NCBI GenBank assembly: GCA_022509145.1
Contig: JAFLTX010000002.1
Span: 15,398-79,397, forward strand
Reading direction: 5' to 3'
Source: Muribaculaceae bacterium
GTDB lineage: Bacteria > Bacteroidota > Bacteroidia > Bacteroidales > Muribaculaceae
DNA: 64,000 nt
The translations under genes and the position numbers were made by a program. The notes under the pieces were generated by a model that ran no database searches, had not been told where the DNA came from, and saw nothing but the letters and a program-made list of their open reading frames with translations. Each line of letters starts with the position of its first letter. Position 1 is the stretch's first letter. Below, piece by piece: positions 11,285 through 45,748 of the stretch.

Positions 11285-13162
11285 ATGAAACTGAAATTTA
11301 CATTACTTTCGATGCTGCTTGCAGGCTGGGGCCTCGCCTCTGCCCAAGACGCAGCTCCCACAGAATTCTCGTGTGTGGCCGACACATGGATCCGCCAAAA
11401 CAACGAAACATTTAAAAACAACTCCGATGTTAAGGTTGAAGTCCGTATGGACGCTCTTAAGGACGATGCTGGCGTAGCCACCGGCGAATACGCAATTTTC
11501 GGCGCCCTATACGGCTTCAATTTCAATATTCCCGCCGGCATGAAAGTGGAGAGCGCTACAGTGCGCCTCGTCACCGAGCGCTGGAAAGGGTGCCCCATCA
11601 ATGTTTATGGTTATTCCAACGATTTTGTTGAGGGCAGCGCTACCTGGGGCTCGGAATCCGATTACCTCGACGCTACTCTCGCAGGCAGCCCGATTCTTAA
11701 CTTCACTCCTGCCGCCCAACGAAATGTGGCTCTGGGCGATGATAATGTAGGCGCAGACTATCGCGATTTGGAGAAATGGACCAATATGCTCGACATTACC
11801 GACTATGTAAAGTCCCTCTCCTCAACAGCTACCCGCGTCAATCTTTTCCTCGCTCCCTCTGAAAACAACACCAACCAGAACTGCTTTTACACCAAGGACG
11901 CCCAAGATGTCGTAAACAAAAACGACGCCACCCTGACATTCCAGGCTGCAGACCTGGTGCCGGTGCTTTACCTGACTTTCACCGAGGACACCGACAACAC
12001 AAAAGCCGTCCGGACTCCGAGCGCCGACAATTTCGTAAGAAGCAGTGCAGCTGGGAACAACTATGCCACTAACGCTGAAATGGAAATCTATACCCAGGCC
12101 GGTGATCCTTCCAACACCTACTTCGTGGGTCTGATGAGGTTCGATCTCCCTGCCGAGCTCCTTTCAGGCGACTATGAAATCTCCGAAGCTACCCTTCGCC
12201 TTGTCACTACCTACTGCAAGGGCGACCGCAATATGGGCATCTACGCTTTCGGCGACTTCGTTGAAAACGCTAGCTGGAACGATGTAGGCAACGACGTGCT
12301 GGATGCGCTGGGTAAAGATCCCGTGGCTAAATTCACTGCTGCAGGTGCCGGCGACAAAGCCCTCAACGGCGGAGACAAAATCGGCGACGATTACACCACA
12401 GTTGAGTCATGGACCAACATTATCGACCTTACGGACTATGCCAAATCAGTAGTTGAAGGTAACTCAACAAACCTCTCTTTCGCCATAGCAAAAACTGCGG
12501 TGCAGAACAACAACAACGCTGTGAAATTCGCCACAAAAGAAACAGGCGCCAAGCAAGGTGTCAAGTCGTCAGACGGCTCCACTTTCGAATTTGCAGCCGA
12601 AGACGTTCTCCCCCAGCTCATCCTTGTCTACTCCAAGAAAGAGGCCGAAGAGCAACCCGGCGACGATGACGACGAAGACCTCGTTATCGAACCCTCAGAC
12701 CACAACACCGTCTGCAAGATCGACGAGGAAACGGGCACTCTGGTCATCACCACTGCCAACCAAACGGCTGCTACGATTCTAATCACTGTTCCCGAGGGCA
12801 CGGTTGCGGTTTACTATAAAATCGAACCCTTCACCCGCTCTTCCAACGTCCTTACTTACGACGCTCCCGCCGGTTATACGGAAATCACTCCCGACACCAA
12901 CGGCAATTACGCTGTGAAGCTCACTACCGGCAGCGAGGGGAACCTGTCGCTTAAGTATGTTGACGCCGACGACAACGAGAAAGACAAGAATTACAAATAT
13001 TATGTAACCTACGACCAGACCACAGGTGTGGAACTCGTTGAGTCTGCCGACGCTCAAGCCGCAGCCGTCTTCACTCTCCAGGGCACCCGCGTCCTGAACC
13101 CCGAAAAGGGCCAGATCTACATTATGGTAGTCAACGGCCGCGCAGCCAAAGTAGTCTTCTAA
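11285..13162 (+). CDS. Secreted protein with two tandem DNRLRE/CBM96-like domains and a T9SS-like C-terminal tail
   Basis: Signal peptide; internal repeat ADTWIRQ..ESATVRLVT..WTNMLDITDY / ADNFVRS..SEATLRLVT..WTNIIDLTDY; tail FTLQGTRVLNPEKGQIYI...KVVF. Confidence 0.65.
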   Translation: MKLKFTLLSMLLAGWGLASAQDAAPTEFSCVADTWIRQNNETFKNNSDVKVEVRMDALKDDAGVATGEYAIFGALYGFNFNIPAGMKVESATVRLVTERWKGCPINVYGYSNDFVEGSATWGSESDYLDATLAGSPILNFTPAAQRNVALGDDNVGADYRDLEKWTNMLDITDYVKSLSSTATRVNLFLAPSENNTNQNCFYTKDAQDVVNKNDATLTFQAADLVPVLYLTFTEDTDNTKAVRTPSADNFVRSSAAGNNYATNAEMEIYTQAGDPSNTYFVGLMRFDLPAELLSGDYEISEATLRLVTTYCKGDRNMGIYAFGDFVENASWNDVGNDVLDALGKDPVAKFTAAGAGDKALNGGDKIGDDYTTVESWTNIIDLTDYAKSVVEGNSTNLSFAIAKTAVQNNNNAVKFATKETGAKQGVKSSDGSTFEFAAEDVLPQLILVYSKKEAEEQPGDDDDEDLVIEPSDHNTVCKIDEETGTLVITTANQTAATILITVPEGTVAVYYKIEPFTRSSNVLTYDAPAGYTEITPDTNGNYAVKLTTGSEGNLSLKYVDADDNEKDKNYKYYVTYDQTTGVELVESADAQAAAVFTLQGTRVLNPEKGQIYIMVVNGRAAKVVF

Positions 13163-13191
13163 CAAGTTGCTCATTACCATTATTATACCAC

Positions 13192-13228
13192 CAAGGGGGC
13201 GAGTCTGAATTCAGATTCGCCCCCTTGA
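13192..13228. terminator. Bidirectional intrinsic terminator
   Basis: CAAGGGGGCGAGTCTG-AATT-CAGATTCGCCCCCTTG between convergent genes. Confidence 0.85.
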
Positions 13229-13279
13229 TTTTCCCCTTATTTGTAAACTTCTCTCCTTCCCTGTCTCCCTAATTTCAAG

Positions 13280-13621
13280 CTATTTCTTGCGGGGAGGCGT
13301 GGGCTTCGTCAGGTAACGCGTCCAGGCCCAAAACTTGCGGCGGGGAAGATAAGTCAGGTCATCGCCGTTGGTATACGCCTCGCGCTCGAACGAGAGGTTG
13401 CGGTATGCCCGGTCCCAGTTGCGGTATTGCAGTATCCTCACCATCCATTCCAGCAGATAGACAATATAAAACCCGACGAAAAGCATCTCGCGCATCTGCG
13501 CGGTATGGATTCGCTCGTGGTTTACCACCTTCTCGTCTATCCAGCTTTTATCGCCGGTAAAATATATGCCGAAAAGATTGATACACAACCTTTTCGGCAC
13601 TAATTTACATTCTATCGTCAT
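13280..13621 (-). CDS. Small conserved protein with a zincin-like HExxH motif
   Basis: NHERIHTAQ...FYIVYLLEW...AYRNLSFEREAY. Confidence 0.7.
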   Translation of the reverse strand: MTIECKLVPKRLCINLFGIYFTGDKSWIDEKVVNHERIHTAQMREMLFVGFYIVYLLEWMVRILQYRNWDRAYRNLSFEREAYTNGDDLTYLPRRKFWAWTRYLTKPTPPRKK

Positions 13622-13633
13622 CTTCCTGAAGAA

Positions 13634-15460
13634 TTAGAGCGCCACTTTCTCGGTCTTGCGCCCCTTCACTCGGATATACACCCCGCGGGTCGGATTCTCC
13701 ACTCGGATTCCCTGCAGGTTGTAATATTCTACAGTCTCATCGTCGTCGGCCTCCACTTCATTCACCGCCGAGGGTTCAGTCAGGCTCACCTGCATCGAGC
13801 CCAGGTCAAGGCGCACGTTATACGTACCGGCTTTGATCTTCCACGACTTGCACGACGAGGCGTCCATTCCGCCTACATACTTCACCACTCCCTGGCTCTG
13901 CCCCTTCTGCAACAGCTGGTTTTCCGAGCTTGCGCCGTAACGATGGTTGGCGTTTACCGTATCCCAGTCGCTGCCGAGTTTGGTGGCAAAAGAGATGAAC
14001 CCGTAGCCGTTCTCACCGTTGTCAATAGTCACGTCTTCCCATGTGTAGACGCCTTTCTGCCCGGCCTTTGAGATCCCTTTCGAAGTAGACCATTCATAGC
14101 CGTTCACGTGTCCCTGCATATAGAGCACCGACGGATAGTCCGTGTCGTCGGGGGTGCTCGGCGTCACTCCGCCGCTGGTAGTGGCCCATACGCAATAACC
14201 GTTGCCAGAACACTTTATCTGCGCGTTGGTATAACCGTCGGGAGCGGCCATCGAGCTGCCGATCTTCACCACGAGCTTCCCGTTTGTGCCGGTTACCTCC
14301 GCCATATAGCAGTCGCGCTCAAGCCTCAGCACAGTCACCGGACTCATATTGTGCACACCCACCTGGTTGCGCACGTTGATAAGCGCTTGTATCTCTTTCT
14401 TATAGGCCTGATAGTGGGGATAAAACACGCAAGGCGTACCCGGCGAGCAAAGCATGAAGGCGTTTGCGGCCACTACATTCCCCGTAAACTTGCTTCCGTC
14501 GCGATACGTGTCGTGATTGTCTACAAACGTCACGGCATACTGCGCATATCCATAGTGGATAAGTCCGGCCGGCTGGGGAGTAATATACTGAGCGGCCCAT
14601 GAAAGCTTGGTCATGTCGTTGGCCGAGAAAGCTTCGTTCACGGCATACTTGAACGGGAAGTCAAACGCCGCCGACTCGCGTCCCGTGGCCTCGATCCATG
14701 CCGCCACGGCGTCGTAGCTGCTGTCGAAATACTCTCCAACACAGAATTGAGGCTTCGAATATTGATTGTAAATCTTGGTGTACTGGCCGCCGTAACCTTT
14801 CACCATATCGAGGCGAAAACCTACGTAACCCATATCGTCGAGCAGGAATTTGCAATAGTTTTTCACGTGATTTTGCACCGTGGTATTCGTATGGTCCAGG
14901 TCGCGGGCTCCGCCGAAATCTTCACCGGTATCGGGATTTCCCTTTTTGTATGGGCAGCCTTGGCCGCCTTCGCTCCACATCTCGTCGGTAGAGCAGATGG
15001 CGCCGTCTGTGAGCTGCCATGTCTGCCCGTTCCAGCTTTCACGTGGAAAATCATATGGCCTTGTTACCCCGACGCGATGGTTTACAACCACATCCTCGAT
15101 AAACCCCACTCCTTTCTCCTTATAGGTGCTTATCATCGTCTTGAGCTCTGCGGCAGTGCCGTAGGCGCAGTTATGGTTGGTAAACCAATAGATGGGCATA
15201 TACCCGTTGCCGCCTCCGTTCTCGCCGTTGGCACGGGCGCTGTTGGGGATCCAAATCAACTTGAAATACTGCGACAGCTCGTCGGCTCGCTTCGTCAGTG
15301 TAGCCCATTTCGTGTCGTCTTCCGCTTTATAAGAATCCCAATAAAAACCTTGTAGCATTACACCCTTATAGTTGGCCGGCCAGCCGGCAGCCTTCCCGCT
15401 CTGCAATCCCAAAGTGAATATTGCAGCCAGAATAAAAAGTTGGCGTATAAGTTTCATCAT
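13634..15460 (-). CDS. Secreted GH13 alpha-amylase with a C-terminal starch-binding-like module and T9SS-like tail
   Basis: VMLQGFYWD, DVVVNHR, GFRLDMVKGY (nucleophile), GEYF, FVDNHD; tail EYYNLQGIRVENPTRGVYI. Confidence 0.92.
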   Translation of the reverse strand: MMKLIRQLFILAAIFTLGLQSGKAAGWPANYKGVMLQGFYWDSYKAEDDTKWATLTKRADELSQYFKLIWIPNSARANGENGGGNGYMPIYWFTNHNCAYGTAAELKTMISTYKEKGVGFIEDVVVNHRVGVTRPYDFPRESWNGQTWQLTDGAICSTDEMWSEGGQGCPYKKGNPDTGEDFGGARDLDHTNTTVQNHVKNYCKFLLDDMGYVGFRLDMVKGYGGQYTKIYNQYSKPQFCVGEYFDSSYDAVAAWIEATGRESAAFDFPFKYAVNEAFSANDMTKLSWAAQYITPQPAGLIHYGYAQYAVTFVDNHDTYRDGSKFTGNVVAANAFMLCSPGTPCVFYPHYQAYKKEIQALINVRNQVGVHNMSPVTVLRLERDCYMAEVTGTNGKLVVKIGSSMAAPDGYTNAQIKCSGNGYCVWATTSGGVTPSTPDDTDYPSVLYMQGHVNGYEWSTSKGISKAGQKGVYTWEDVTIDNGENGYGFISFATKLGSDWDTVNANHRYGASSENQLLQKGQSQGVVKYVGGMDASSCKSWKIKAGTYNVRLDLGSMQVSLTEPSAVNEVEADDDETVEYYNLQGIRVENPTRGVYIRVKGRKTEKVAL

Positions 15461-15669
15461 ATCATTCTTTTAGTTAAGCCGTTATTGCCTGCTTTTGAGC
15501 CGCTCTCCCCTCCCATTATTAATGGAGAAAATTCTCCTTCAAAGGATTGAATTTCATCCCGCGGGAGTATGGAGATTCCAACGTTCAAAAGCAATTTTTG
15601 TGCGTAATCATCTTCCGCGCCTACAAATATAATAAAATTTTCCCAAACTCCTTCCCCAAATGATTTGTC

Positions 15670-15723
15670 AGCTATCATAGCTATCGTAGCTATTTTAGCT
15701 ATTTTAGCTATTTTAGCTATCGC
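15670..15723. repeat. Tandem 9-bp array, AGCTATnnn x6
   Basis: agctatcat agctatcgt agctatttt x3 agctatcgc. Confidence 0.9.
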
Positions 15724-15747
15724 GCGGAGTGCTCTTCCGGGTCTCGC

Positions 15748-16116
15748 TCAGGAGATGGTCTTCCCGAAGGGGAAGAGGGCGAGCCATGCCAGCTTGAAAT
15801 GCTGGTTACCGAAGGGAATGCCGATTATCGTGATGTAGAATATCAACCCCCACACCACGTGAGTAAGGGCTATCACAAACCCTCCTACAAACCACCAAAC
15901 CACGTTCATTATATCAGCAAAACAGCCCTGCGGCCAGCCGTCGCTCTGAATGGTGGTGCCGAACGGCCACAATGCCACCAACGCCAGCTTGAGCGTCTGG
16001 AGCCCGAACGGAATCCCTATGATGGTCACCATCATCGCGATGCTGGACATCACGTATTCCACGGCAATCATAAAACCGCCGAAAACAACCCAAATAATAT
16101 TCAGAAACGTCTTCAT
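15748..16116 (-). CDS. yccF: YccF-domain inner membrane protein
   Basis: Two repeats NIIW...TIIGIPFG...LWPFG / ITIIGIPFG...LFPFG. Confidence 0.9.
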   Translation of the reverse strand: MKTFLNIIWVVFGGFMIAVEYVMSSIAMMVTIIGIPFGLQTLKLALVALWPFGTTIQSDGWPQGCFADIMNVVWWFVGGFVIALTHVVWGLIFYITIIGIPFGNQHFKLAWLALFPFGKTIS

Positions 16117-16127
16117 AATCAGTCGGT

Positions 16128-16478
16128 TTATTGCGTCAACGCGTTATAGACAACCACCGCATTGTTGTGCTGCTCGTCATGGGAAGAGTAAAGGAGCGTG
16201 ACCACCGGTTTTGTCTCCAAAAGCTTTTTCAAAGCCGCGAAAGCCGCGCTCTCATTGAGTTCCGCCATATATTTCTGCTCGAATTCAGACCATCTGTCTG
16301 TAGGGTCGGCATGAAACCATTCCCGCAGTTCCGTAGAGGGCGCGATATCCTTGTCCCACAAATCATAATGGAAATTCTCGTGACTCAATCCGCGGGGCCA
16401 GAGACGGTCGATATAGACCCTGTATCCATCGTCGGCCGATTCCCCTTCATACGCCCTTTTAATTCTATACTCTGTCAT
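16128..16478 (-). CDS. DUF488/YeaO family protein
   Basis: IKRAYE...DDGYRVYIDRLWPRG...IAPSTELREWF...HNNAVV. Confidence 0.92.
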   Translation of the reverse strand: MTEYRIKRAYEGESADDGYRVYIDRLWPRGLSHENFHYDLWDKDIAPSTELREWFHADPTDRWSEFEQKYMAELNESAAFAALKKLLETKPVVTLLYSSHDEQHNNAVVVYNALTQ

Positions 16479-16587
16479 ACCGTCAGTTCTTTTTCTTTAA
16501 AAACACCCTCTCCCCACAAAAAGTTGTCCCGGCCTCTGGTGCTGACTGCCGAGGTTGAACAAGCCTTGACGGATGCCGCGGACAGGT

Positions 16588-17544
16588 CTAATAAAAAATC
16601 CTTGAAAGGATGCCCAAAGCCGGGCGCCCGAGCAGCGACACCACCGCGCCGATCTTATTCTTCAGCTTTACATCCCTGTCTCTGAGCGCACGCGAGCGCC
16701 CTTCCTTGATCACGGCTATGCAACGGGCCTCGGCTTCGGGATTCCGAACGCCGTTCTTCAGCAAGAGCATAAGGATGTTGAAGTGGGCGCTGAAACGGCG
16801 GTCGAGCGCCGCTCCGTGCAGCTCAGGATACCGCTCGGCAAAGAACCCAGCCATCCTGTCGGTTACGTCGAGCACGTCCAGACGCCCGTCGCTCCAGCGG
16901 TTGACAAAACTCCCGGCATGGTCGCGGTAGAAATAGAGAGGCTCCTCGATATAGAGAATCTTTCCCGCCCCTTCCATAATCCTGTAAAACGAATCGAGGT
17001 CTTCATACCAGATCCCCTCCCTGAAACCTCCTGCGCTCACGATGCGTTCTTTCCTGTAGAGTTTCGCCCAGGCCGAGTTGAGGCGAAGATGCCGGTATAG
17101 CGTAGCCTTCATCGCCCCTTCATAATCAAACTCCCTGCAACGGAACCTTCCGTAACTCCGCGGTGTAAATTCACCGCTACGGCAAAAGGCGGCGCAACAC
17201 ACGTCGGCGCCGCGCTCTTTCAGCAAGCCGAGCATCGCCTCGAGGGCCTGGGGATAGAGAGCGTCGTCGCTGTCGAGAAATGTTACGTATTCCCCGCGTG
17301 CTTCCGCCGTTCCGGCATTCCGGGCTCCCGACAATCCGCGGTTCTGCGGAAGGTCGATCACCCGAAACCTGCCGTCTCCCTCCGTGAGCCGCCGCGCGAG
17401 CTCCGGCGTGGAGTCTGTGGAGGCATCGTTCACTATGATGGCTTCGAAAGTCGCCAAAGTCTGGGCCTTCACTGAAGATATGCACTCCTCCAGATAGGCC
17501 TCCGCATTGTACGCCGGAATTATTATAGAGATCTCAGGTAACAT
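16588..17544 (-). CDS. Glycosyltransferase family 2
   Basis: ISIIIPAYNAEAYL, IVNDASTD, GLSGARNAG, FLDSDD, YEDL. Confidence 0.93.
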   Translation of the reverse strand: MLPEISIIIPAYNAEAYLEECISSVKAQTLATFEAIIVNDASTDSTPELARRLTEGDGRFRVIDLPQNRGLSGARNAGTAEARGEYVTFLDSDDALYPQALEAMLGLLKERGADVCCAAFCRSGEFTPRSYGRFRCREFDYEGAMKATLYRHLRLNSAWAKLYRKERIVSAGGFREGIWYEDLDSFYRIMEGAGKILYIEEPLYFYRDHAGSFVNRWSDGRLDVLDVTDRMAGFFAERYPELHGAALDRRFSAHFNILMLLLKNGVRNPEAEARCIAVIKEGRSRALRDRDVKLKNKIGAVVSLLGRPALGILSRIFY

Positions 17545-18371
17545 TCAAGCGTATTCTCAAGCAGACAGGCACGCGTGAGAGGTCCTACTCCGCCCGGCAC
17601 CGGCGTGATGGCGCCGGCCACCTCTTTGGCGCTTTCAAACTCCACGTCTCCGCAAAGCTTCCCCGTGGCCGGATTGCGGTTCACGCCCACGTCTATCACG
17701 ATGGCGCCCGGCTTTATCATATCGCCCTTCACCAGCTCCGGACGGCCCACGGCCACTACAAGGATGTCGGCCTCGCGCGTTACGGCCCCGAGGTCGGGCG
17801 TGCGGCTGTGCGCTATCGTCACGGTGGCATTCCGGTCGAGCAGAAGTTTGGCCACCGGGAGGCCCACGATGTTGCTGCGGCCCACCACCACGGCGCGCTT
17901 CCCGCTGATTTCAATCCCGTTGTCTTCAAGAATATGGATCACCCCCTTCGGGGTACAAGGCACGATGCACTGCTCTTTAAGCCACAGCCCTGCTACATTT
18001 CGCGGATGAAAACCATCCACGTCTTTCTCCGGCGAGACGGCGCGCAATATGCGGTCGGAGTCGATATGCTTCGGCAGCGGGAGCTGAATCAGTATCCCGT
18101 CAATCTCCGGATCGGCGTTCAGCTTCTCCACTTCCTGCAGAAGCTCCTGCTCGGCAATATCCTCCGGATAAGAGAGGGTGCTCCCGGCAAATCCCACCTC
18201 GGCACAATCCTTCGCCTTACCGGCCACATAGGAGCGGCTTCCGGGGTCGTCGCCAACAATTACCACCGCCAGGCCGGGGCGCCGTTTCCCCTCGCTCTGA
18301 AACGCTTCTACTCTCTCTGCTATTTTTCTCTTCATCTGTTGGGAAAGTGCTTTCCCGTCGAGTATTCTCAT
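17523..18371 (-). CDS. folD: Methylene-THF dehydrogenase/cyclohydrolase
   Basis: GILIQLPLP, KDVDGFHP, PCTPKG, GRSNIVGLP, TPVPGGVGP. Confidence 0.97.
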   Translation of the reverse strand: MRILDGKALSQQMKRKIAERVEAFQSEGKRRPGLAVVIVGDDPGSRSYVAGKAKDCAEVGFAGSTLSYPEDIAEQELLQEVEKLNADPEIDGILIQLPLPKHIDSDRILRAVSPEKDVDGFHPRNVAGLWLKEQCIVPCTPKGVIHILEDNGIEISGKRAVVVGRSNIVGLPVAKLLLDRNATVTIAHSRTPDLGAVTREADILVVAVGRPELVKGDMIKPGAIVIDVGVNRNPATGKLCGDVEFESAKEVAGAITPVPGGVGPLTRACLLENTLECYLRSL

Positions 18372-18403
18372 AGGTTTAAGGTTTTATTTTTCAGCTCTTG
18401 TTT

Positions 18404-18811
18404 TCAATTGAAATGTCCGTGAGGCAGGAGGGGAAGATTTCTGTAAATGGTCCATCCCACCATCAGCACCAAAAGAGTCAGAATCACCGGCCAGGAGCTC
18501 ACCACGCCGTAAAGGCGCGGATGCTTCTTCTTGGTGATCTCCGCATAAGCCACCAAGACGATGAACGGAATCATCACCATCAGGAAGGCATTCGCTTGAA
18601 AAGCGCCTGCAAAATCGCCGTTCAGCACTGCGTGAAGCGCCCGTTGCGACCCGCACCCCGGGCAGCTCAGCCCGGTAAAGAAGTTGAACGGGCAACGAGG
18701 CATCCACCCCGCCTGCAACGGGTCGAAGACGGCATATACCAGAAGTATCGCCGCCACCGCGCCCCAGACAATCAGGCTGGTGTATCGCTTTCCCGTGCTT
18801 TTGAGTATCAT
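18404..18811 (-). CDS. DUF2752 membrane protein
   Basis: PRCPFNFFTGLSCPGCGSQRALHAVLNGDF motif plus TM helices. Confidence 0.9.
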   Translation of the reverse strand: MILKSTGKRYTSLIVWGAVAAILLVYAVFDPLQAGWMPRCPFNFFTGLSCPGCGSQRALHAVLNGDFAGAFQANAFLMVMIPFIVLVAYAEITKKKHPRLYGVVSSWPVILTLLVLMVGWTIYRNLPLLPHGHFN

Positions 18812-18888
18812 CTGCTGCCGCTTGAAATTTGACGGACTCTCATTTTAAATCGAGTGCTCCTGTCTCAACTCTCTTTATCTGAAACTTT

Positions 18889-19947
18889 CTACCCCAGGAA
18901 GAGGGTGAGCGGCAGATAAAGCGTGGCCCAGATGATGCCGGCCACAACCGACACTATACACCATATCTGGGCTCTGCGCGACGCCCTTTTCGCACCCTCG
19001 ATGTCGCCTGCAAAGTATTTCGAACTCACCGACGACGAGTAGATGATGGCTATGATTCCCGGGATGAGGCAGCAAAGGATGGTGATTATCACCGACCACA
19101 CCAGATACGTATCCGGCATCGGTTCACGCCTCTGTTCATCCTCATAATAGGGCTGATAAGGATTTCTCCCGGGCTCTCCGCCGCCGTATTGACCGCCTTG
19201 GCCGGGACTGCCGCCGTAAGGCGCACCCGGGCGGTCCCAATACTGCTGCTGGCGTCTCCACTGATTTTCTGGCGCCTGCTCGGCCTGCCGTTCCGCAGCC
19301 TGCTGTTCCGCCTGCTCCCACTCTGCCTGCTGCTCCGGGTTTTCCGCCCGCGGAGCCTCACCTGCCTGAGAAGCGGCATTCTGATCTTCGCCGGCCTCAC
19401 CGTCGGTCTCGGGGTGGATGTCAAGCACTTTGGCCCACTCCTTCTCACCCTCGTCGAGATGCGCAAAGGGGTCTTTCTCGCGTGGGTCCTCTGCAGCCGG
19501 GCTTTCCTCGGCTTTCTCCGAGGGCGCCTCCGCCGGTTCCGTTTTCTCCGGCTCCTCCGGCTCCTCCGGCTTCGTTTCTATCTGGGGATGCACCGGCTCT
19601 CTCTTCTCCCCTTTCTTTATAACCTCAAGCGGGGTGCCTTCTACGGTAGCGGGATACACCACCGCGTCGCGGAAAGATTCCTCCACCGAAGCCGGGAGCG
19701 AAGAGGCGTAGTCGTCTACCACTATCAGCTCCACATCCCTCTCCTTGAGAAGGGCTGCCAATTCTTCGGCGGGAATCCCCTCGGTGTGCACCACCTCGAT
19801 TCCCTCCTCATTCAGCCTCGCGGCCACTGGAGCAGCCATGTCGTCGGTCAGGAGAACGGCCACCGTTACCCTGTTGCCGCCTTTGAAGAAGTCTACCAGG
19901 TGAGATGCCTTGGCACCTTCTCCCGATGCGAATATTGCAATTTTCAT
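18889..19947 (-). CDS. Fusion of a degenerate PurN-like N-terminus, a disordered linker and a CD225/dispanin domain
   Basis: MKIAIFASGEG (PurN IA.FASG.GSN loop); E/P/Q-rich linker; MPDTYLVWSVIITILCCLIPGIIAIIYSSSV...GDIEGAKRASRRA (CD225). Confidence 0.8.
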   Translation of the reverse strand: MKIAIFASGEGAKASHLVDFFKGGNRVTVAVLLTDDMAAPVAARLNEEGIEVVHTEGIPAEELAALLKERDVELIVVDDYASSLPASVEESFRDAVVYPATVEGTPLEVIKKGEKREPVHPQIETKPEEPEEPEKTEPAEAPSEKAEESPAAEDPREKDPFAHLDEGEKEWAKVLDIHPETDGEAGEDQNAASQAGEAPRAENPEQQAEWEQAEQQAAERQAEQAPENQWRRQQQYWDRPGAPYGGSPGQGGQYGGGEPGRNPYQPYYEDEQRREPMPDTYLVWSVIITILCCLIPGIIAIIYSSSVSSKYFAGDIEGAKRASRRAQIWCIVSVVAGIIWATLYLPLTLFLG

Positions 19948-39409: not shown

Positions 39410-39509
39410 TGTAAAGCGGCTTTACATATTTTGTCAACGTGTAAAGAAAACGGGCATTTCTTTACACGTTTTAATAATCTGTAAAAAATCGCCGATTCTT
39501 TACAGATTG
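39410..39509. repeat. Three consecutive TGTAAA...TTTACA inverted repeats
   Basis: TGTAAAGC-G-GCTTTACA; AACGTGTAAAGAAA..TTTCTTTACACGTT; AATCTGTAAAAAATCG..CGATTCTTTACAGATT. Confidence 0.8.
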
Positions 39510-39534: not shown

Positions 39535-39860
39535 AGCAACGTGTTATGCGGAACTCAAGTTTTCTGCCCCTTCCATAGGTGGAACCGGGACGATAGCCAT
39601 TGCCCTTATTGCCGGGATTTTCACTTAGGAACTCACCCCTTTCAGCTACCAGCATGATTTCAAGAAGGTCTTGAAGACCATTCCCTTCCCTTTCTGTGCA
39701 TGCTTGCACATCAATTCGGAAAGTTGTAATTTTGTCAAATCCATAAGTTGTAATTTTTAGTGTTTAGTCGCCTTAAAATTACAAACTTGTTCGGACCGGT
39801 CAAAATTTGGCCGGTCCTTTTTCATCCTATCTTGACAGACACACTTTTTGAAACAGTCTC
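39535..39860 (-). pseudogene. IS256-family remnant: left end plus a frameshifted, truncated transposase N-terminus
   Basis: End GAGACTGTTTCAAAAAGTGTGT at 39860. ATG at 39744 gives MDLTKLQLSELMCKH, then after a frameshift GNGLQDLLEIML..ER.EFL..NKGNGYRP..YG.GRKLEFRI, which then breaks off. Confidence 0.85.
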
Positions 39861-40187
39861 GGTTTCTCACATGAGGATAAAGATTATATCAGGTATATTC
39901 CCGAACCTGTTTTAAGTTTCTTTGAAGATGAATTCAACGAAAAAGAAATGATTAATTGGGTGGAGCTTTTAGAGGAATCCCTGTTCAATTTCTCAGTATG
40001 GAAGGGCATATTTGCAATATTGAATACCCCCTTTTATACTCCATCCGGAGGTGGCGTTGGAAGTTCTGACAATGATCTTCCGAAAAGAAAAGACGAGTTG
40101 GAAGAGGAAATGAAATTTGCGATGAGGTTTGCACAGGCAGCAAAATCAAAGGTCGGAATCGTGAAATCTAAAGGAAGAAGGATGTGA
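39861..40187 (+). pseudogene. C-terminal remnant of a Bacteroidales mobilisation (relaxase) protein, truncated by IS256
   Basis: Frame is open from the IS end (GFSHEDKDYIRYIPE...); tail SGGGVGSSDNDLP..KDE...KGRRM resembles Mob protein C-termini. Confidence 0.55.
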
Positions 40188-40191
40188 TATC

Positions 40192-40683
40192 ATGGCAATG
40201 AAACAATTCAACGCTGAAGAAATGAGGAAGAAAATTCAGGAGATAAAGACAGAGGAAGGTAATCACCAAAATCTTGACAAGGCTTCTGAAATCAATGACA
40301 CAATCCAGTTATTTATTGAAAAAATGCCGGAATTTGTTGAGGAAATTAACAAGCCAATGTCTGATGAATCCTTCAAAACCTATGCCGGTGTCATCGGTTT
40401 TATAATGAGAAAAGGAGCGGATGTAGCAGCTGATAGATTTGAAAAAAGGTTGACGGAGTTATTGAAAAAGGCAAATCGGAATGATAAAATCACTCTTCCG
40501 ACCATAGCCTTTTATATCCTGATGATAGTCCTGATATATCTCCTTTTATTCTTCGGAGGGGTTGTCTTTGGCAATTTCAAGGCTATTCATTCCGATGAAT
40601 TATCAGAATGGATCTTTTGGATTTACTTCTTTTTATCTGTTTCAATAGGGATTTTCTTGTGGCTAAAGAGATACTTCAAATGA
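40192..40683 (+). CDS. Hypothetical membrane protein (two C-terminal TM helices) of mobilisation modules
   Basis: Coiled N-terminus, two hydrophobic segments, directly after the Mob tail. Confidence 0.7.
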   Translation: MAMKQFNAEEMRKKIQEIKTEEGNHQNLDKASEINDTIQLFIEKMPEFVEEINKPMSDESFKTYAGVIGFIMRKGADVAADRFEKRLTELLKKANRNDKITLPTIAFYILMIVLIYLLLFFGGVVFGNFKAIHSDELSEWIFWIYFFLSVSIGIFLWLKRYFK

Positions 40684-40766
40684 ATTATTTGATACAATTT
40701 ATCTGTTATTTCATACAATAAAAACAGAATAAGAACTTTAAGTCTTACGTTATTATTAAAAATTAT

Positions 40767-41091
40767 TAACTTTGCAACGCATACCGACTTTTGGAGCCTC
40801 CGGTATGGGCGCAACGAGGGCGGCTGCAAAACATATTGACAAAAAGCGTTTATCGCGCTAATTCTTGACTTACAGAAATCTGGCAGTTTCTATTGGAGTT
40901 CAAGAATGAAGCACCGGTATGCGCCTTTCGAGGTATGATTATTCTCAATGTAGAGAACAATCGTGATGATTGTTTATTCATTAGTATTTTCATATCAGCG
41001 TGAGGCTCCGGTTGCTCGTTCTAACTCCAAGGGTAAGCCAGAGCCTCTGTAAGCGGGACGAGCAACGATGATTGGCTCTCACGCTTTTTTT
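40767..41091 (+). promoter_or_regulatory. Promoter (TAACTTTG) plus ~310-nt structured leader RNA ending in a terminator-like stem (putative attenuator)
   Basis: Many 6-9 bp complementary segments, several mutually exclusive; AGCGTGAG/CTCACGCT stem followed by T7. Confidence 0.7.
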
Positions 41092-41137
41092 ATTAACTAA
41101 TCGCCAATGAAGTGAGCCCAGAGGCATAAAGAACTTT

Positions 41138-41458
41138 ATGATTATTAATCTTAATGATGATGATTTTCGTGGTTTCTTGCAAGAGATAATAGAAAATCAA
41201 GCCCTTAACACCATCTTTTCCAACAGCCCATATTGGGGAAAAGGAGAACAAGCAATTCAATTGATCTGCAATTCACAATTTAAATCCTATCCACAAGATT
41301 TGATTCAAATTATCCAACACTTAATAGATGATGTTTGTCCGGAGCAATGTGAAGGTGGTTGTAACATTGGATGGAATCAAATGTCTACAACATTAATTAA
41401 TGGAGATAGTTTATGTGACTATCATCATAATTTAAAAGAAAAACTTGATAAAGAATAA
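41138..41458 (+). CDS. Hypothetical protein with a Cys/His cluster (possible Zn binding)
   Basis: CPEQCEGGC...W...LCDYHH; first gene after the leader. Confidence 0.65.
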   Translation: MIINLNDDDFRGFLQEIIENQALNTIFSNSPYWGKGEQAIQLICNSQFKSYPQDLIQIIQHLIDDVCPEQCEGGCNIGWNQMSTTLINGDSLCDYHHNLKEKLDKE

Positions 41459-41463
41459 TAGAA

Positions 41464-43863
41464 ATGAAACCTCAACAATTTAAATTGATCAGCATAGTTA
41501 TACTGCTTCTTTCATTTCCTAAAATTTCAGCTTATGATTTTGAGGTTGATGGAAATCTATTCTTTGAAATTATATCTCCATCTGAGCTTACATGTAAGCT
41601 TGAAAGTGTGAATAGGAACTATGAAGGTGTGCTAACAATTCCTGAAAGTGTGGATTACAAAGGAAATAAGTTGGCTGTCACTGTTATAGGTACAAATTGC
41701 ATACGATTCTGTGATAAACTAACTGATATAATTGTTCCTGCAAGTATCAAGAGCATGGAAGAAGAATGTTTTGCGAATTGCATTTCAATACAAAGTGCTA
41801 ATCTAGAGCAAATAGAGGCATCCATATTACCTCAAGGATGTTTTAAAAATTCATCAATACAGAATATTATATTACCTACACATGTTATAGAACTTCCTAA
41901 TGAGTTTTTTTATGGATGTCGAAACTTGAGTAATTTTACCATACCAGAAGGAGTGGTCAAGATTGGAGATAGTTGTTTTGCTTCAACAAAACTAGAATCT
42001 ATTTGTATTCCTGAATCATTGTTAACGCTCGGTAAAGGTTCATTTTCAGATGCCACCATCGCTTCTACTATTAATCTCCCAGAAGGTCTTTTGGAAATAG
42101 GAGATTATACTTTTAGAAACGCTTCCCTCCCTTATCTTTATATACCTTCCAAAGTTTCGCAGGTAGGAATTGGTATTTTTCAGAATTGTCAAATTCGGAA
42201 AGTTGAATTTTCTTCAGCATCAACAATTCAAACTTTACCAGAAAAAATGTTTTACCAAAGTTCCCTTGAAAACATTATATTCCCTCCTAATCTTATTAAT
42301 ATAGGAGATGGATGTTTTACAAATTGTAAAAATCTATCTCAACTTGATTTTCCTAATACAATTGAAAGTTTGGGATATCAAAGTTTAGCTGGTCTTAATC
42401 TTGATTTCTTCTGTCTTACAGAAAATTTGAAGTACGTAAATTACAAATGTTTTAACGATAGAAATTCTTCCTGGATTGATAATACAACAATTAAGAAACT
42501 AGTTTGGACAACTCCTAATCTAAATGAAAATTATTTTGATGCAGCTTTAAACAGTGAAAAATACTATGAATTAGATGATCTAGAGGATGCATCATTTGAT
42601 TTTGGTTCAGTTATTGAATGTGAGATAAGTGATAATTGTGATTTCCTTTACTTGGGATGGGTTCAAGGATATCTATTATATAGTGACCATGGTTGGAGAC
42701 ACTACAGGTATTTTGTATTTGAAAACAGTTCTTTGCAAAAATTAGTTTTGAAGGATAGTCCTAAAACTTTACAATTGGCTACTGTATATCATTTTAGTGG
42801 AAATTATTTTGGTAAAAATTACGTCCGCATGTATAAAGGATATTTTCCGTATAAAGAAAATGAGGAGGTATATGATTATTTTTTATCAACTTGGATGGAA
42901 AGTCTAAAAGAATTATATCTTGGTCGGGAAATTGAAGGAAATCCACTTTATGTACCTAATCTTGAACGATTAATTATTGGACAAGTACAAAAAGTAGATA
43001 TTGAAAATACTCCATTGCCTAACCTTAAATCAATAGAATGTGTGTCGGACATACCTCCTATAATTTCAGAAGATCACTTTACTATAGCACAATATGTAGA
43101 CCTACCTGTTGTGGTTCCAGATAATGCCATTGAAAATTATCGTAAGGCAGAAGTTTGGAAAAATTTTTGGAATATTATGACCAAAACTGATTATGAAGCT
43201 TCAATACCTAAAGATATTTCATTGAATTATTCTGACCTAACTTTAAATATTGGAGAAAATTTACAATTAACTGCTTCTTTATACCCAGAAACTGCCTCTG
43301 GAAATATAATTTTTGTCAGCTCAAACGAAGAAGTTGCATCTGTTTCTGAAGAGGGTCTTATTACTGCAAATTCAGTTGGAGAAACTATAATAACTGCTTC
43401 TTGTGGTGGAATTTCGACAACATGCACAATTTGTGTTGTTAATCCGATTAATAAAGCGGAACAGATTGTATTGAATCTTGAATTGGCTGAATTAAATATC
43501 GGAGAAACACTACAAATTGAAGCGACTGTCATTCCTGAAGATACTACAGATAAGACCTTATCATGGAATTCATCTGATCCAAATGTCGCTACTGTTTCTG
43601 ATAATGGTCTTGTAACAGCCGTATCGGCAGGATCAGTAATTATTACAGCAATTTGTGGAGAAGTATCAGCAGAATGTCAGATTACTGTTCTTGATGATGC
43701 CGGTGTTGAAAGCCTTCTTGCTAATCCGGATACAAGCATTTCAGTTTATTCCATGGATGGTAACTTGATAAGAAAGGATTGTAAAGTCGAAGACTTAAAA
43801 ACTCTAAATAAAGGAACATATATAATAGTTTCCGGTAAAGAACAATATAAAATTTCAATTTAA
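41464..43863 (+). CDS. BspA-type leucine-rich repeat (LRR_5) surface protein with two Big_2 domains and a C-terminal secretion-like tail
   Basis: Signal ..AYDFEVDG; repeats IPEGVVKIGDSCF; YRKAEVWKNF; WNSSDPNVATVSDNG; VYSMDG...LNKGTYII. Confidence 0.9.
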   Translation: MKPQQFKLISIVILLLSFPKISAYDFEVDGNLFFEIISPSELTCKLESVNRNYEGVLTIPESVDYKGNKLAVTVIGTNCIRFCDKLTDIIVPASIKSMEEECFANCISIQSANLEQIEASILPQGCFKNSSIQNIILPTHVIELPNEFFYGCRNLSNFTIPEGVVKIGDSCFASTKLESICIPESLLTLGKGSFSDATIASTINLPEGLLEIGDYTFRNASLPYLYIPSKVSQVGIGIFQNCQIRKVEFSSASTIQTLPEKMFYQSSLENIIFPPNLINIGDGCFTNCKNLSQLDFPNTIESLGYQSLAGLNLDFFCLTENLKYVNYKCFNDRNSSWIDNTTIKKLVWTTPNLNENYFDAALNSEKYYELDDLEDASFDFGSVIECEISDNCDFLYLGWVQGYLLYSDHGWRHYRYFVFENSSLQKLVLKDSPKTLQLATVYHFSGNYFGKNYVRMYKGYFPYKENEEVYDYFLSTWMESLKELYLGREIEGNPLYVPNLERLIIGQVQKVDIENTPLPNLKSIECVSDIPPIISEDHFTIAQYVDLPVVVPDNAIENYRKAEVWKNFWNIMTKTDYEASIPKDISLNYSDLTLNIGENLQLTASLYPETASGNIIFVSSNEEVASVSEEGLITANSVGETIITASCGGISTTCTICVVNPINKAEQIVLNLELAELNIGETLQIEATVIPEDTTDKTLSWNSSDPNVATVSDNGLVTAVSAGSVIITAICGEVSAECQITVLDDAGVESLLANPDTSISVYSMDGNLIRKDCKVEDLKTLNKGTYIIVSGKEQYKISI

Positions 43864-43870
43864 AAATCAA

Positions 43871-43901
43871 GTTGAGAGCCTGATCAATGAATGGTCAGGC
43901 T
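43871..43901 (+). terminator. Stem-loop between the LRR and HEPN-like genes
   Basis: GAGAGCCTGA-N11-TCAGGCTCTC. Confidence 0.55.
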
Positions 43902-43922
43902 CTCTTACAAATTATAAATAGT

Positions 43923-44390
43923 ATGGCAATAAAAGGACTTTCCAAAGAAGAGGATATACCGCAATTGTTTGATTATCTTATGATATATCCAGATGAAATT
44001 GAAAAATATAAAGGCTGGTTCAATATTAAAGATAATGTAGTTGATAAATTTTTAAATCATAATGATATTTTCTACGGATCATATAAAAAAGATAATATAT
44101 TGAAAGCTAAAAAACATCAATGGTATTTGTTATTTGAACAAAATAAAAATTCTAAAAAATCAGGATCAGATGTGGCACATCATCTTCTTCGTCATATTAG
44201 AAATGCTATAGCACATGCTAACATTGAAAAGATTATAAAGAAAGAAAAGAAAGTAAATCATCAAATCTTGTCACTTAAGGATTACAGTATTAATGGAAAT
44301 TCTCAGACAATGGATGGGAGAATTGAAAGCAAGTTATTTTATCAACTCATAGACTTAATATTGCAAACTAAAAAGGACCCCAATGGATAG
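43923..44390 (+). CDS. HEPN-like protein (putative RNase)
   Basis: LLRHIRNAIAHANI contains the R-N-x3-H HEPN motif. Start set at MAIKG, after the hairpin. Confidence 0.6.
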   Translation: MAIKGLSKEEDIPQLFDYLMIYPDEIEKYKGWFNIKDNVVDKFLNHNDIFYGSYKKDNILKAKKHQWYLLFEQNKNSKKSGSDVAHHLLRHIRNAIAHANIEKIIKKEKKVNHQILSLKDYSINGNSQTMDGRIESKLFYQLIDLILQTKKDPNG

Positions 44391-44509
44391 ATTTATAAGT
44401 TTCCTAATAATCCTAATTTTTTAAATAGAAATTATTTAGGAACTATTTGGGAACAAAATTGAATTTGGGAAAGCAGTTGATATTGGAAATCAGAGAGATA
44501 TATTTAAGC

Positions 44510-44957
44510 TTGCAGTTCAAGCGTAGGAGTCTGTACCTTTTGGTGCTCATCCTACGTTCTGAGGCCCTGGTAATTGCCCGGTATTGTCGAATGAGCAACC
44601 AGCAGAAGCCTTCTACGCCGTTTATACGATTATATATGCAACGATCACATCACATAATGATGTCCAATACGTCGGGATACAATCATATCCGCAAGGCATC
44701 TACCGTTGCCGCACTCTTGACAATACCAATGAATTTACCAGATTCCAGAACGTCAAGATTTGCGTCTTGGGTAAACGCGTTTCTTATGTTGACGAGAGCC
44801 TCTGCTCTCGCGGGATTTACCTCCTGCAAACTCCGCATTTAAGCGGCATAAACCGGGGCTCTATCCCTACAATCCCTCCCACAAGGTCAATTCCCAATAC
44901 ATATTTCATAATTGGTTGACTCACCCCTTCGACCGGGCTTCTGCGGGCGGTTTGCAA
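44510..44957 (-). ncRNA. Large structured ncRNA candidate (~445 nt), possibly the Bacteroidales-2 RNA
   Basis: TAATTTTG promoter at 44961-44968 (minus); terminal TTGCA/TGCAA pairing; long-range GCAGAAGCC/GGCTTCTGC; hairpins CGTAGGA/TCCTACG, CTTGAC/GTCAAG, CGAGAGC/GCTCTCG, GGATA/TATCC; no credible CDS. Family name is recalled, not searched. Confidence 0.6.
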
Positions 44958-45145
44958 TCACAAAATTAATGATTTTATTTAAGTATCGCAAGTTCAATAA
45001 GTAAATTTTAAGTTATATAAATTGGTTCGGCATTTTGATATCCGAAAGTATTTAAAAAAATTTGCAATGCTTGGGGAGGGTCAGTCGGTTTGCGGACCGA
45101 CCACGGGCGGGGACAACGTGGGCGCTTGGGCCAACGGAAATGTGA

Positions 45146-45748
45146 TTAGAGGAGGCGCTTGACGGGGGCGTAGGAGAGACGGTGATGGGGAGTAACGCCC
45201 AAGGTTTCGAGGGCGGCAAGGTGTTCTTTGGTGGGATACCCCATATTTCTTTCCCAACCGTAGCCTGGAAACTCTTCGGCCAGACGGATCATCAGCTCGT
45301 CGCGAGCCGTTTTGGCCAAAATCGAGGCGGCGGCAATCGAGAGGTATTTCGCATCGCCTTTCACCACGGTGTGGTGCATCACGGGGCGCATCTCCTCATC
45401 GAGATACGTGCTGAAGCGGTTGCCGTCTACTATAATGTGCGCGGGCTTCAAATCCAGAGCATCCAAAGCGCGATGCATCCCGATGATGGATGCCTTGAGG
45501 ATGTTGATTTCGTCGATCTCACGCGGGCTCACCATCACCACGCTCCAGGCTCTCGCCTCGGCCTTGATCAGGGCTGCAAGCTCCTCGCGCTTCCCGGCAG
45601 CAAGCTGCTTGGAATCGTTGATCTCTTCACATTCAAATCCATCCGGGAGCACCACCGCCGCGCAGGCCACCGGTCCGCAGAGGCATCCCCTGCCGGCTTC
45701 GTCACACCCGGCTTCAATCACGCCGGCATACATATATGGGAGCAACAT
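45146..45748 (-). CDS. rnhB: Ribonuclease HII
   Basis: AGCDEAGRG, DSKQL, VDGN, KGDAKYLSIAAASILAK. Confidence 0.97.
   Translation of the reverse strand: MLLPYMYAGVIEAGCDEAGRGCLCGPVACAAVVLPDGFECEEINDSKQLAAGKREELAALIKAEARAWSVVMVSPREIDEINILKASIIGMHRALDALDLKPAHIIVDGNRFSTYLDEEMRPVMHHTVVKGDAKYLSIAAASILAKTARDELMIRLAEEFPGYGWERNMGYPTKEHLAALETLGVTPHHRLSYAPVKRLL

Follow-up and report, generated by a model that had tools for sequence, protein, structure and literature searches.

Results

A structured RNA at the border of a low-GC region

We analysed a window of 64,000 nucleotides (nt) from a Muribaculaceae genome (assembly GCA_022509145.1, contig JAFLTX010000002.1, positions 15,398 to 79,397), in which a preliminary description had flagged a promoter-led, hairpin-rich, non-coding element. 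This flagged RNA is located on the minus strand, with its conserved part running from ~44957 to ~44519 and its tail extending to ~44439, giving a total length of 440-520 nt. Upstream of it lies the RNase HII gene rnhB (45146-45748, minus strand; Pfam RNase_HII, E 1e-44), a core gene with normal G+C content (GC). GC is 0.31-0.37 over positions 40001-45000 as compared to 0.50-0.62 in the flanks. At 40766-41091 the plus strand carries a sibling copy of the RNA that has its own -7 box and T-tract, and a gene starts 52 nt after its core. The cargo led by this sibling (41138-44390, plus strand) is convergent on the flagged RNA and encodes three proteins, one of 106 amino acids (aa), one of 799 aa with BspA-type leucine-rich repeats (LRR) and Big_2 domains (LRR_5, E 1e-56; Big_2, E 6e-28; both Pfam), and a HEPN-like protein of 167 aa whose gene is located at 43887-44390 (Pfam pEK499_p136 HEPN, E 4.7e-5, with 23.6 bits below the cut-off of 26.6 bits).

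The flagged RNA is preceded by a candidate promoter at 44961-44992 on the minus strand, with TAATTTTG as -7 box at 44968-44961 and, as read from the sequence, a possible -33 element, CTTG, at 44992-44989, 20 nt upstream of the -7 box. Bacteroidetes promoters have the consensus TTTG / TAnnTTTG, and TAATTTTG aligns with the invariant TAnnTTTG box of 20 other copies of the RNA family described below, the T, A, and TTTG positions being invariant or nearly so in all 21 aligned copies. Judged by this alignment, TAATTTTG is a Bacteroidetes-type -7 box and marks the putative promoter of the flagged RNA.

The 489 nt following the -7 box fold on the minus strand with a predicted energy of -181.1 kcal/mol and a z-score of -7.43, which was equalled by none of 100 shuffled sequences, and the plus-strand fold of the element gave a z-score of -4.59. 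Together with the -7 box this confirms the promoter-led, hairpin-rich, non-coding element and places it on the minus strand. The end-to-end pairing that had been proposed is present in the energy-minimum fold as well and is specific to the flagged copy among the members of the family. ARAGORN detected neither a transfer RNA (tRNA) nor a transfer-messenger RNA (tmRNA) in the 64-kb window, and Rfam 15 had no match in it at the gathering score, in agreement with the earlier statement that the element is not a tRNA, tmRNA, or RNase P. This Rfam search had been proposed along with the suggestion that the element resembles Bacteroidales-2 RNA; as no Rfam 15 family matches, that identity does not hold. 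With the threshold relaxed to E<=10, both copies in the window gave chance-level matches alone (small nucleolar RNA, microRNA, and the like).

The 5' domain of the flagged RNA (44783-44957, minus strand) retains the conserved blocks GCAnACCGC, the GCAGAAGCCCGG hairpin, and GGGAGGG, and in the alignment two copy-specific, hairpin-rich insertions (~44923-44881 and ~44866-44783, minus strand) are located between these conserved blocks. The domain is followed by the conserved core (44519-44782, minus strand), a long irregular hairpin whose alternative fold consists of two local hairpins. The GC of the flagged copy is 0.45 and lies, like that of its sibling copies, below the GC of the genome. We also considered a coding pseudogene and rejected it, since the stop-to-stop frames, which were judged by length and complexity without a protein-library search, are short or of low complexity, and the helices show paired changes.

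The flagged RNA is a member of a multi-copy family

We built a covariance model, R1, from 17 copies, leaving the flagged copy out of the seed. R1 matches the flagged element at 44519-44782 on the minus strand with 158.4 bits (E 4e-36) over all 247 of its 247 positions, and it matches the sibling copy, 3.4 kb from the flagged RNA, at 40842-41086 on the plus strand with 183.9 bits. The whole genome contains nine matches, i.e. the flagged copy, its sibling, and seven more. In a sample of the order 27 of 141 genomes, the source genome included, have matches to R1, with up to 11 per genome. When the flagged element itself was compared by BLAST with 41 related genomes, partial matches were found in 19 of them, several per genome, with 18 of the 24 same-genus genomes and none of the 16 genomes outside the genus giving a match. 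Plasmid and phage collections contained no BLASTN match to a typical family copy.

Twenty loci and the copy in the window share a common design, which consists of an invariant -7 box, a short 5' domain, and a core of ~250 nt, and most aligned family copies have CACGC followed by a T-tract at their 3' end. Sequence identity of the flagged copy with the other aligned copies does not exceed 66.7%. Nevertheless, 55 of the 59 consensus pairs of the long hairpin, or rod, are standard pairs in it, and its two local hairpins keep 7 of 8 and 9 of 10 pairs, with one A-U pair standing where most copies have G-C. Retention of the pairs at this level of identity indicates that the flagged copy is under the same structural constraint as the family and is not decaying.

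By sequence and structure comparison the flagged stretch is thus a member of a multi-copy family of Bacteroidales RNAs, a putative leader RNA with two folds. The family has no match in Rfam 15 and no description in the literature searched, which did not cover subscription journals. Fremin and Bhatt (2020, bioRxiv 10.1101/2020.03.31.018887) reportedly listed 1,085 candidates in supplementary tables, which may bear on the novelty of the family. New here are the cargo-less state of the flagged copy and its fixed 3' module, both of which are described below.

Covariation points to two folds of the core

In an alignment of 43 copies (A6) 95.4% of the cells of the long rod are paired and 49 of its 59 pairs change on both sides, counts that are inflated as A6 was fitted to the structure of the model; none of 500 shuffles reached these values, and slid controls gave 36-45%. 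The second fold arises when the two halves of the rod fold separately, each into a local hairpin. These two hairpins have 93.1% of their cells paired in the 43 copies and changes on both sides in 17 of 18 pairs, again with none of 500 shuffles reaching these values and slid controls at 34-55%. RNAalifold on a MAFFT-based alignment of 20 copies found compensatory changes in 33 of 62 pairs. In the 3' closing helix, which precedes the U-tract, 88.1% of the cells are paired in 20 copies and one of eight pairs changes on both sides. Judged by this comparison among copies, the predicted structure of the family is real.

Family copies are located in front of accessory genes

At 38 of 41 loci in other genomes the frame next downstream shares the strand of the RNA, with its start 3-243 nt past the core. 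The frame at one of these 38 loci, L009, is probably spurious, and another two loci were too short to be assessed. Likewise, seven of the eight assessable copies in the source genome have a same-strand gene behind them, the flagged copy being the exception. The cargo proteins are mostly unrelated to one another, and their largest group consists of six LRR proteins. Of 20 scanned cargo proteins 12 have Pfam matches, comprising BspA-type LRR, BACON, DUF4595, Fib_succ_major, Listeria-Bacteroides repeat, SH3_3, PD40, radical SAM, methyltransferase, and NusG-like proteins, and the other eight are without any match. The copy at locus L014 (G003:C6) stands directly before the NusG-like gene (Pfam NusG, E 1e-12), a neighbour that recalls the UpxY genes heading Bacteroides capsule operons.

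A promoter, two mutually exclusive folds, a helix with a U-tract, and an adjacent gene together indicate a conditional terminator. A unit of the family would comprise its own promoter, a short 5' domain, and a core of ~250 nt that adopts either the rod or the two local hairpins, and the 3' part of a typical copy would be formed by a G+C-rich closing helix and the U-tract. The accessory gene, in most cases predicted to encode a surface or secreted protein, would usually start ~50-90 nt further on. In this arrangement the choice between the two folds would most likely decide if RNA polymerase terminates behind the leader or continues into the cargo, a logic that would correspond to a zipper-type attenuator with a presumed termination step.

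The flagged copy is expanded and lacks a gene behind it

The distance from the -7 box to the position of the T-tract is 481 nt in the flagged copy and 313-379 nt in typical copies, the difference of ~150 nt being due to the two insertions in the 5' domain. Where typical copies read CGCTTTTTT the flagged copy has CGCTTGAACTG, and its U-tract is replaced; at least 10 other copies share a 3' variant without U-tract. A consensus scan for terminator-like sites gave none in 43800-45200. No minus-strand frame of at least 40 aa exists within 43871-44442, i.e. there is no same-strand gene behind the flagged RNA, and the genes next past it are the HEPN-like and LRR genes, which are convergent and led by the sibling copy. 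As read from the sequence, an A/U-rich hairpin is located at 44402-44445 between the conserved motif at the end of the RNA and the stop codon of the HEPN-like gene, and one of the chance-level Rfam matches, mir-203, traces the same hairpin. It may serve as a two-way stop for convergent transcripts, although the terminator scan did not call it.

As the promoter, the rod, and both local hairpins are kept, the flagged RNA is probably still made and still folds. We consider it likely that the flagged stretch is an expanded, cargo-less paralogue of the multi-copy Bacteroidales leader RNA. It falls into a sub-group that carries a fixed 3' module instead of the U-tract, and it is oriented towards the 3' end of a cassette with a separate leader copy. 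Its output might be a free structured RNA of ~440-520 nt or, by read-through, an antisense transcript of the HEPN-like gene.

The convergent arrangement also brings to mind type I toxin-antitoxin pairs, in which an RNA overlaps the 3' end of the toxin mRNA, and the flagged RNA could accordingly be an antisense RNA or RNA antitoxin for the HEPN-like gene. The motif and the HEPN-like stop codon are separated by 48 nt, the flagged copy has neither a U-tract nor a terminator detectable by the scan, and loci of its sub-group often carry defence genes, all of which would suit such a pair. However, the 3' flanks of HEPN-like homologues from two other genomes contain neither the RNA nor the motif, those sub-group loci with a same-strand first gene have their cargo downstream and not convergent, and the HEPN assignment itself is below the Pfam cut-off. 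This renders an antitoxin function extremely improbable. The same two homologues led us to reject the idea that the motif is part of a HEPN cassette.

A conserved motif marks the border to low-GC DNA

In place of the U-tract the flagged RNA has, as read from the sequence, a spacer of 62 nt (44457-44518, minus strand), which holds a weak 5-bp hairpin, GCTTG AACTG CAAGC (44522-44508), and two TTCCCAA-like words 18 nt apart. The spacer is followed by the conserved 18-mer TTGTTCCCAAATAGTTCC (44439-44456, minus strand) at the border with the low-GC DNA. This motif carries the direct heptamer repeats GTTCCCA and GTTCCTA, 11 nt apart. The 16-mer GTTCCCAAATAGTTCC (44454-44439, minus strand) corresponds to the two heptamers, and an overlapping copy of it has three mismatches. 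Tandem repeats resembling integrase arm sites had been proposed past the 3' end; repeats are indeed present and conserved in other species, but they are not tandem 17-mers. The TGATA/ATCAG dyad noted at the same place exists too, but with 4-5 bp it is unremarkable.

The exact 18-mer occurs once in the source genome and in five of 151 genomes of the genus, and the module of ~90 nt is found in seven of these 151, once in each. Among 185,579 species, represented by one genome each, there are 21 loci with the exact 18-mer; by our own arithmetic ~17 occurrences are expected by chance in these 596 billion bases, so that the total count is uninformative. The signal lies in the clustering of the loci in Muribaculaceae-type records and in the fixed distance to the RNA. 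Judged by record titles only, most of the 21 loci are labelled Muribaculaceae, Sangeribacter, or older Bacteroidales, and at 10 of them the motif is preceded on the same strand by a copy of the RNA whose end is 62-64 nt away, the same spacing as in the window. As the 18-mer is exact in other species, the repeats are not a product of chance. One of the loci (L218) is in a record titled Candidatus Saccharibacteria and combines a Muribaculaceae-type RNA, a spacer of 63 nt, the motif, and two GmrSD-type genes; its contig has probably been placed in the wrong genome bin.

In other copies of the module the spacer contains a 13-bp hairpin followed by a T-rich run. The module is also located behind an internally deleted leader (G019) and behind the terminator hairpin of another gene (G021). 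Past the motif GC usually drops, from 45% to 31% in the window and, at G013, from ~52% upstream of the RNA to ~33%. The genes past the motif vary and encode GmrSD-type nucleases (two loci), a DNA methylase, radical SAM, TPR, and thioredoxin-like proteins, and the HEPN-like protein in the window. A FastTree phylogeny over 241 columns, calculated without support values, groups three of four module copies with two module-less copies and places one elsewhere. Another site with the motif (L203, G019:C30) has four consecutive genes beside it at ~12900-19200, encoding proteins of 399, 197, 1232, and 291 aa, the third of which has a P-loop; our impression from sizes and N-termini only is that this cluster looks Wadjet-type. 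At L164, L171, and L178 the related word TTGTTCCCAAATTGTTCCCAAG follows inverted TTGGGA / TTGGAA words, and at two of these three loci it stands beside a gene that by eye resembles a conjugative coupling ATPase. The GTTCCCA repeats may represent a binding site that is also present in mobile elements.

The conserved border motif is, by its recurrence, real, and it could be an operator or promoter, a docking site for a protein, or a recombination site. In the last case a recombinase encoded elsewhere would insert or swap low-GC cassettes behind the RNA. This would agree with the exact 18-mer in several species at 62-64 nt past the RNA in 10 other loci, the fall in GC after the motif in most loci, the different DNA past the motif from locus to locus (GmrSD nucleases twice, a DNA methylase, the HEPN-like gene), the occurrence of the module without the full RNA in G021 and G019, and the position of several matches at contig ends, as expected for strain-variable sites. 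Variable low-GC DNA after the motif in many loci is also predicted by a leader with varied cargo. In addition, no tyrosine recombinase was found in the island, the window, or the five module-bearing contigs, a search that did not include serine recombinases and transposases, and the far border has no second copy of either the motif or the RNA end. Moreover, the endpoints of homology vary by locus, with five loci sharing at least 50 more conserved bases past the motif, and conservation of the module exceeds that of the RNA cores only moderately. On balance we regard a recombination site as unlikely. A related and quite improbable arrangement is that promoter, RNA, and module form a fixed expression socket, with the hairpin and the GTTCCCA repeats 62-64 nt past the RNA as docking or recombination site at which a recombinase encoded elsewhere inserts or exchanges defence and surface-gene cassettes; if true, such a socket would be integron-like in Muribaculaceae, with a structured RNA switch in place of attI/Pc.

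As a further possibility the motif might be part of a second, regulated promoter that drives the cargo of the sub-group 250-540 nt further on, with TTTG at the start of the motif as -33 element, the GTTCCCA repeats as operator, and a TTG box 7-11 nt further on as -7 element. Most loci do have TTG or TTTG 7-11 nt past the motif and a same-strand frame 250-540 nt downstream, and the 13-bp hairpin and T-rich run of the module resemble a terminator, which would stop transcription of the RNA ahead of the motif. Nevertheless, conservation of the -7-like box is poor and the box in the window is degenerate, the spacing of ~16 nt is shorter than that of Bacteroidetes promoters, and in the window transcription from such a promoter would run antisense into the HEPN-like gene. 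We therefore consider a second promoter very doubtful.

The flagged RNA and the integration-site question

Genes for tRNA and tmRNA are attachment (att) sites of tyrosine integrases, and the preliminary description had suggested that the flagged RNA is a stable core gene whose 3' end is used in the same way. A structured RNA gene, foreign-looking DNA starting just behind its 3' end, and short direct repeats where the two meet are common to both cases. In contrast to these genes, the flagged RNA is multi-copy and accessory, no integrase and no duplicated 3' end accompany it, and the foreign-looking DNA is normally the RNA's own downstream cargo.

A stable core gene is at odds with nine copies in the genome, with matches in 27 of 141 genomes of the order, and with an rnhB-linked copy, i.e. 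one within 8 kb downstream of rnhB, in only one of 20 relatives; the two rnhB-linked copies are not close relatives in the FastTree phylogeny. The tabulation of integrases at RNA 3' ends, which had been put forward as a check, spoke against an att site as well. Among 35 RNA copies in five other genomes two have a tyrosine recombinase within 10 kb, one of them on the 3' side. The source assembly contains two matches to PF00589 only, on contigs C30 and C27, with the C27 match 12 kb from the nearest RNA copy. The proteins of the island have no recombinase domain in Pfam, serine recombinases and transposases not being part of the search, and no tyrosine recombinase is encoded on the five module-bearing contigs, of which three have a length of only 5-9 kb.

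Nor did we detect an att duplication. The 3' end of the RNA (18 nt, up to three mismatches) matches once in the 64-kb window, the motif (up to three mismatches) matches only at its own place in the window, and no repeat of at least 12 nt is listed as common to both borders of the island. With neither a nearby tyrosine recombinase nor a duplicated RNA end, the sequence data do not support the flagged RNA as a core gene used as an integrase landing site.

The surrounding accessory region

Low-GC, variable DNA does start right past the motif, as had been noted in describing it as AT-rich foreign DNA, but a better explanation for it is the accessory cargo normally found behind leaders of this family. 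In the simplest reading the space between nadK and rnhB, two convergent core genes, is taken up by an accessory region to which both the RNA and the low-GC DNA belong. The rnhB neighbourhoods of 20 same-genus genomes share an ispB-rnhB arrangement, and nadK never occurs in them. We found no genome of the same species, and a metagenome scan gave nothing above 69% identity. With no nadK-linked rnhB in relatives and nothing above this identity, no empty site was seen.

Two further observations concern the left part of this region. Just past the NAD kinase gene, at 39421-39508, three consecutive hairpins are built on TGTAAAG / CTTTACA words. At 39711-39823 there are two direct repeats ending in GTTGTAATTTT, which resembles a promoter box, and ~40 nt past these repeats a G+C-rich hairpin with a T5 run (39794-39823). 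Taken together, these boxes and the hairpin could form a small RNA gene located where the low-GC region begins on the left.

On the other side, in rnhB, the RNase HII matches of six same-genus genomes (G009, G046, G051, G057, G059, and G067) are in two pieces, residues ~1-99 and 101-197, which are 51-70 nt apart in one open frame. Accordingly, the enzyme of these six genomes seems to carry ~20 inserted residues in its middle.

Discussion

The results favour a leader RNA family that precedes accessory genes, with the flagged RNA as a likely expanded and cargo-less paralogue. Several points weigh against this interpretation. Transcription, 3' end, and read-through of the flagged RNA are what we infer; a leader without a gene has no obvious job in cis, and, given how well this cargo-less copy is preserved, the RNA may act on its own as well. 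The covariation of the terminator helix is weak, and the rod pair counts are inflated by the way A6 was made. The leader model gives no explanation for an 18-mer that is exact at the border of variable DNA while the RNA cores are 56-65% identical. Finally, no genome of the same species was found that would place the true start of the inserted DNA.

With the classical terminator/antiterminator leaders, such as riboswitch platforms, T-box, and trp-type leaders, the family shares a promoter, a leader, a helix with a U-tract, and mutually exclusive folds. In contrast to these it has no Rfam match and no recognisable ligand pocket or leader peptide, and the genes behind it share no pathway.

The nearest described mechanism, by analogy, would be that of cATT of the Bacillus subtilis plasmid pLS20, a zipper-type transcriptional attenuator (Gonzalez-Alvarez et al., Nucleic Acids Res 2026, PMC13401043). 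In cATT the sequences flanking a long, imperfect stem can pair in two ways, giving either separate hairpins that include a terminator or an extension of that stem (PMC13401043). Both are long leaders before accessory genes, and the rod and two-hairpin folds of the family would follow the same logic. There is no sequence relationship between the two, the phylum is different, and the family has many copies per genome and heads many unrelated genes, whereas cATT heads conjugation operons. Furthermore, the flagged copy has neither a U-tract nor a gene behind it, and for the family termination is predicted from its folds.

In Bacteroides, ops-like pause sites in the leaders of capsule operons recruit UpxY, a NusG paralogue (Nat Commun 2024, PMC11685472), and these too are Bacteroidales leaders that control elongation into operons for surface structures. 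In the part of that study available to us they appear as variable regions with a single pause hairpin and not as a conserved folded RNA (PMC11685472), and in contrast to the UpxY system, as described there, the leader family has no known partner protein.

The finding that the flagged RNA is a member of a multi-copy accessory family removes the tempting reading of a new core RNA as integrase target. What stands at its 3' end is an exactly conserved repeat motif at a fixed distance, located where variable and often defence-related DNA begins.

To our knowledge, little is known about control after the start of transcription in gut Bacteroidales. The leader RNAs form a large and strongly covarying family without an Rfam entry, which appears to gate many accessory surface and defence genes, and the well-preserved, cargo-less copy may hint at a role of the RNA itself.

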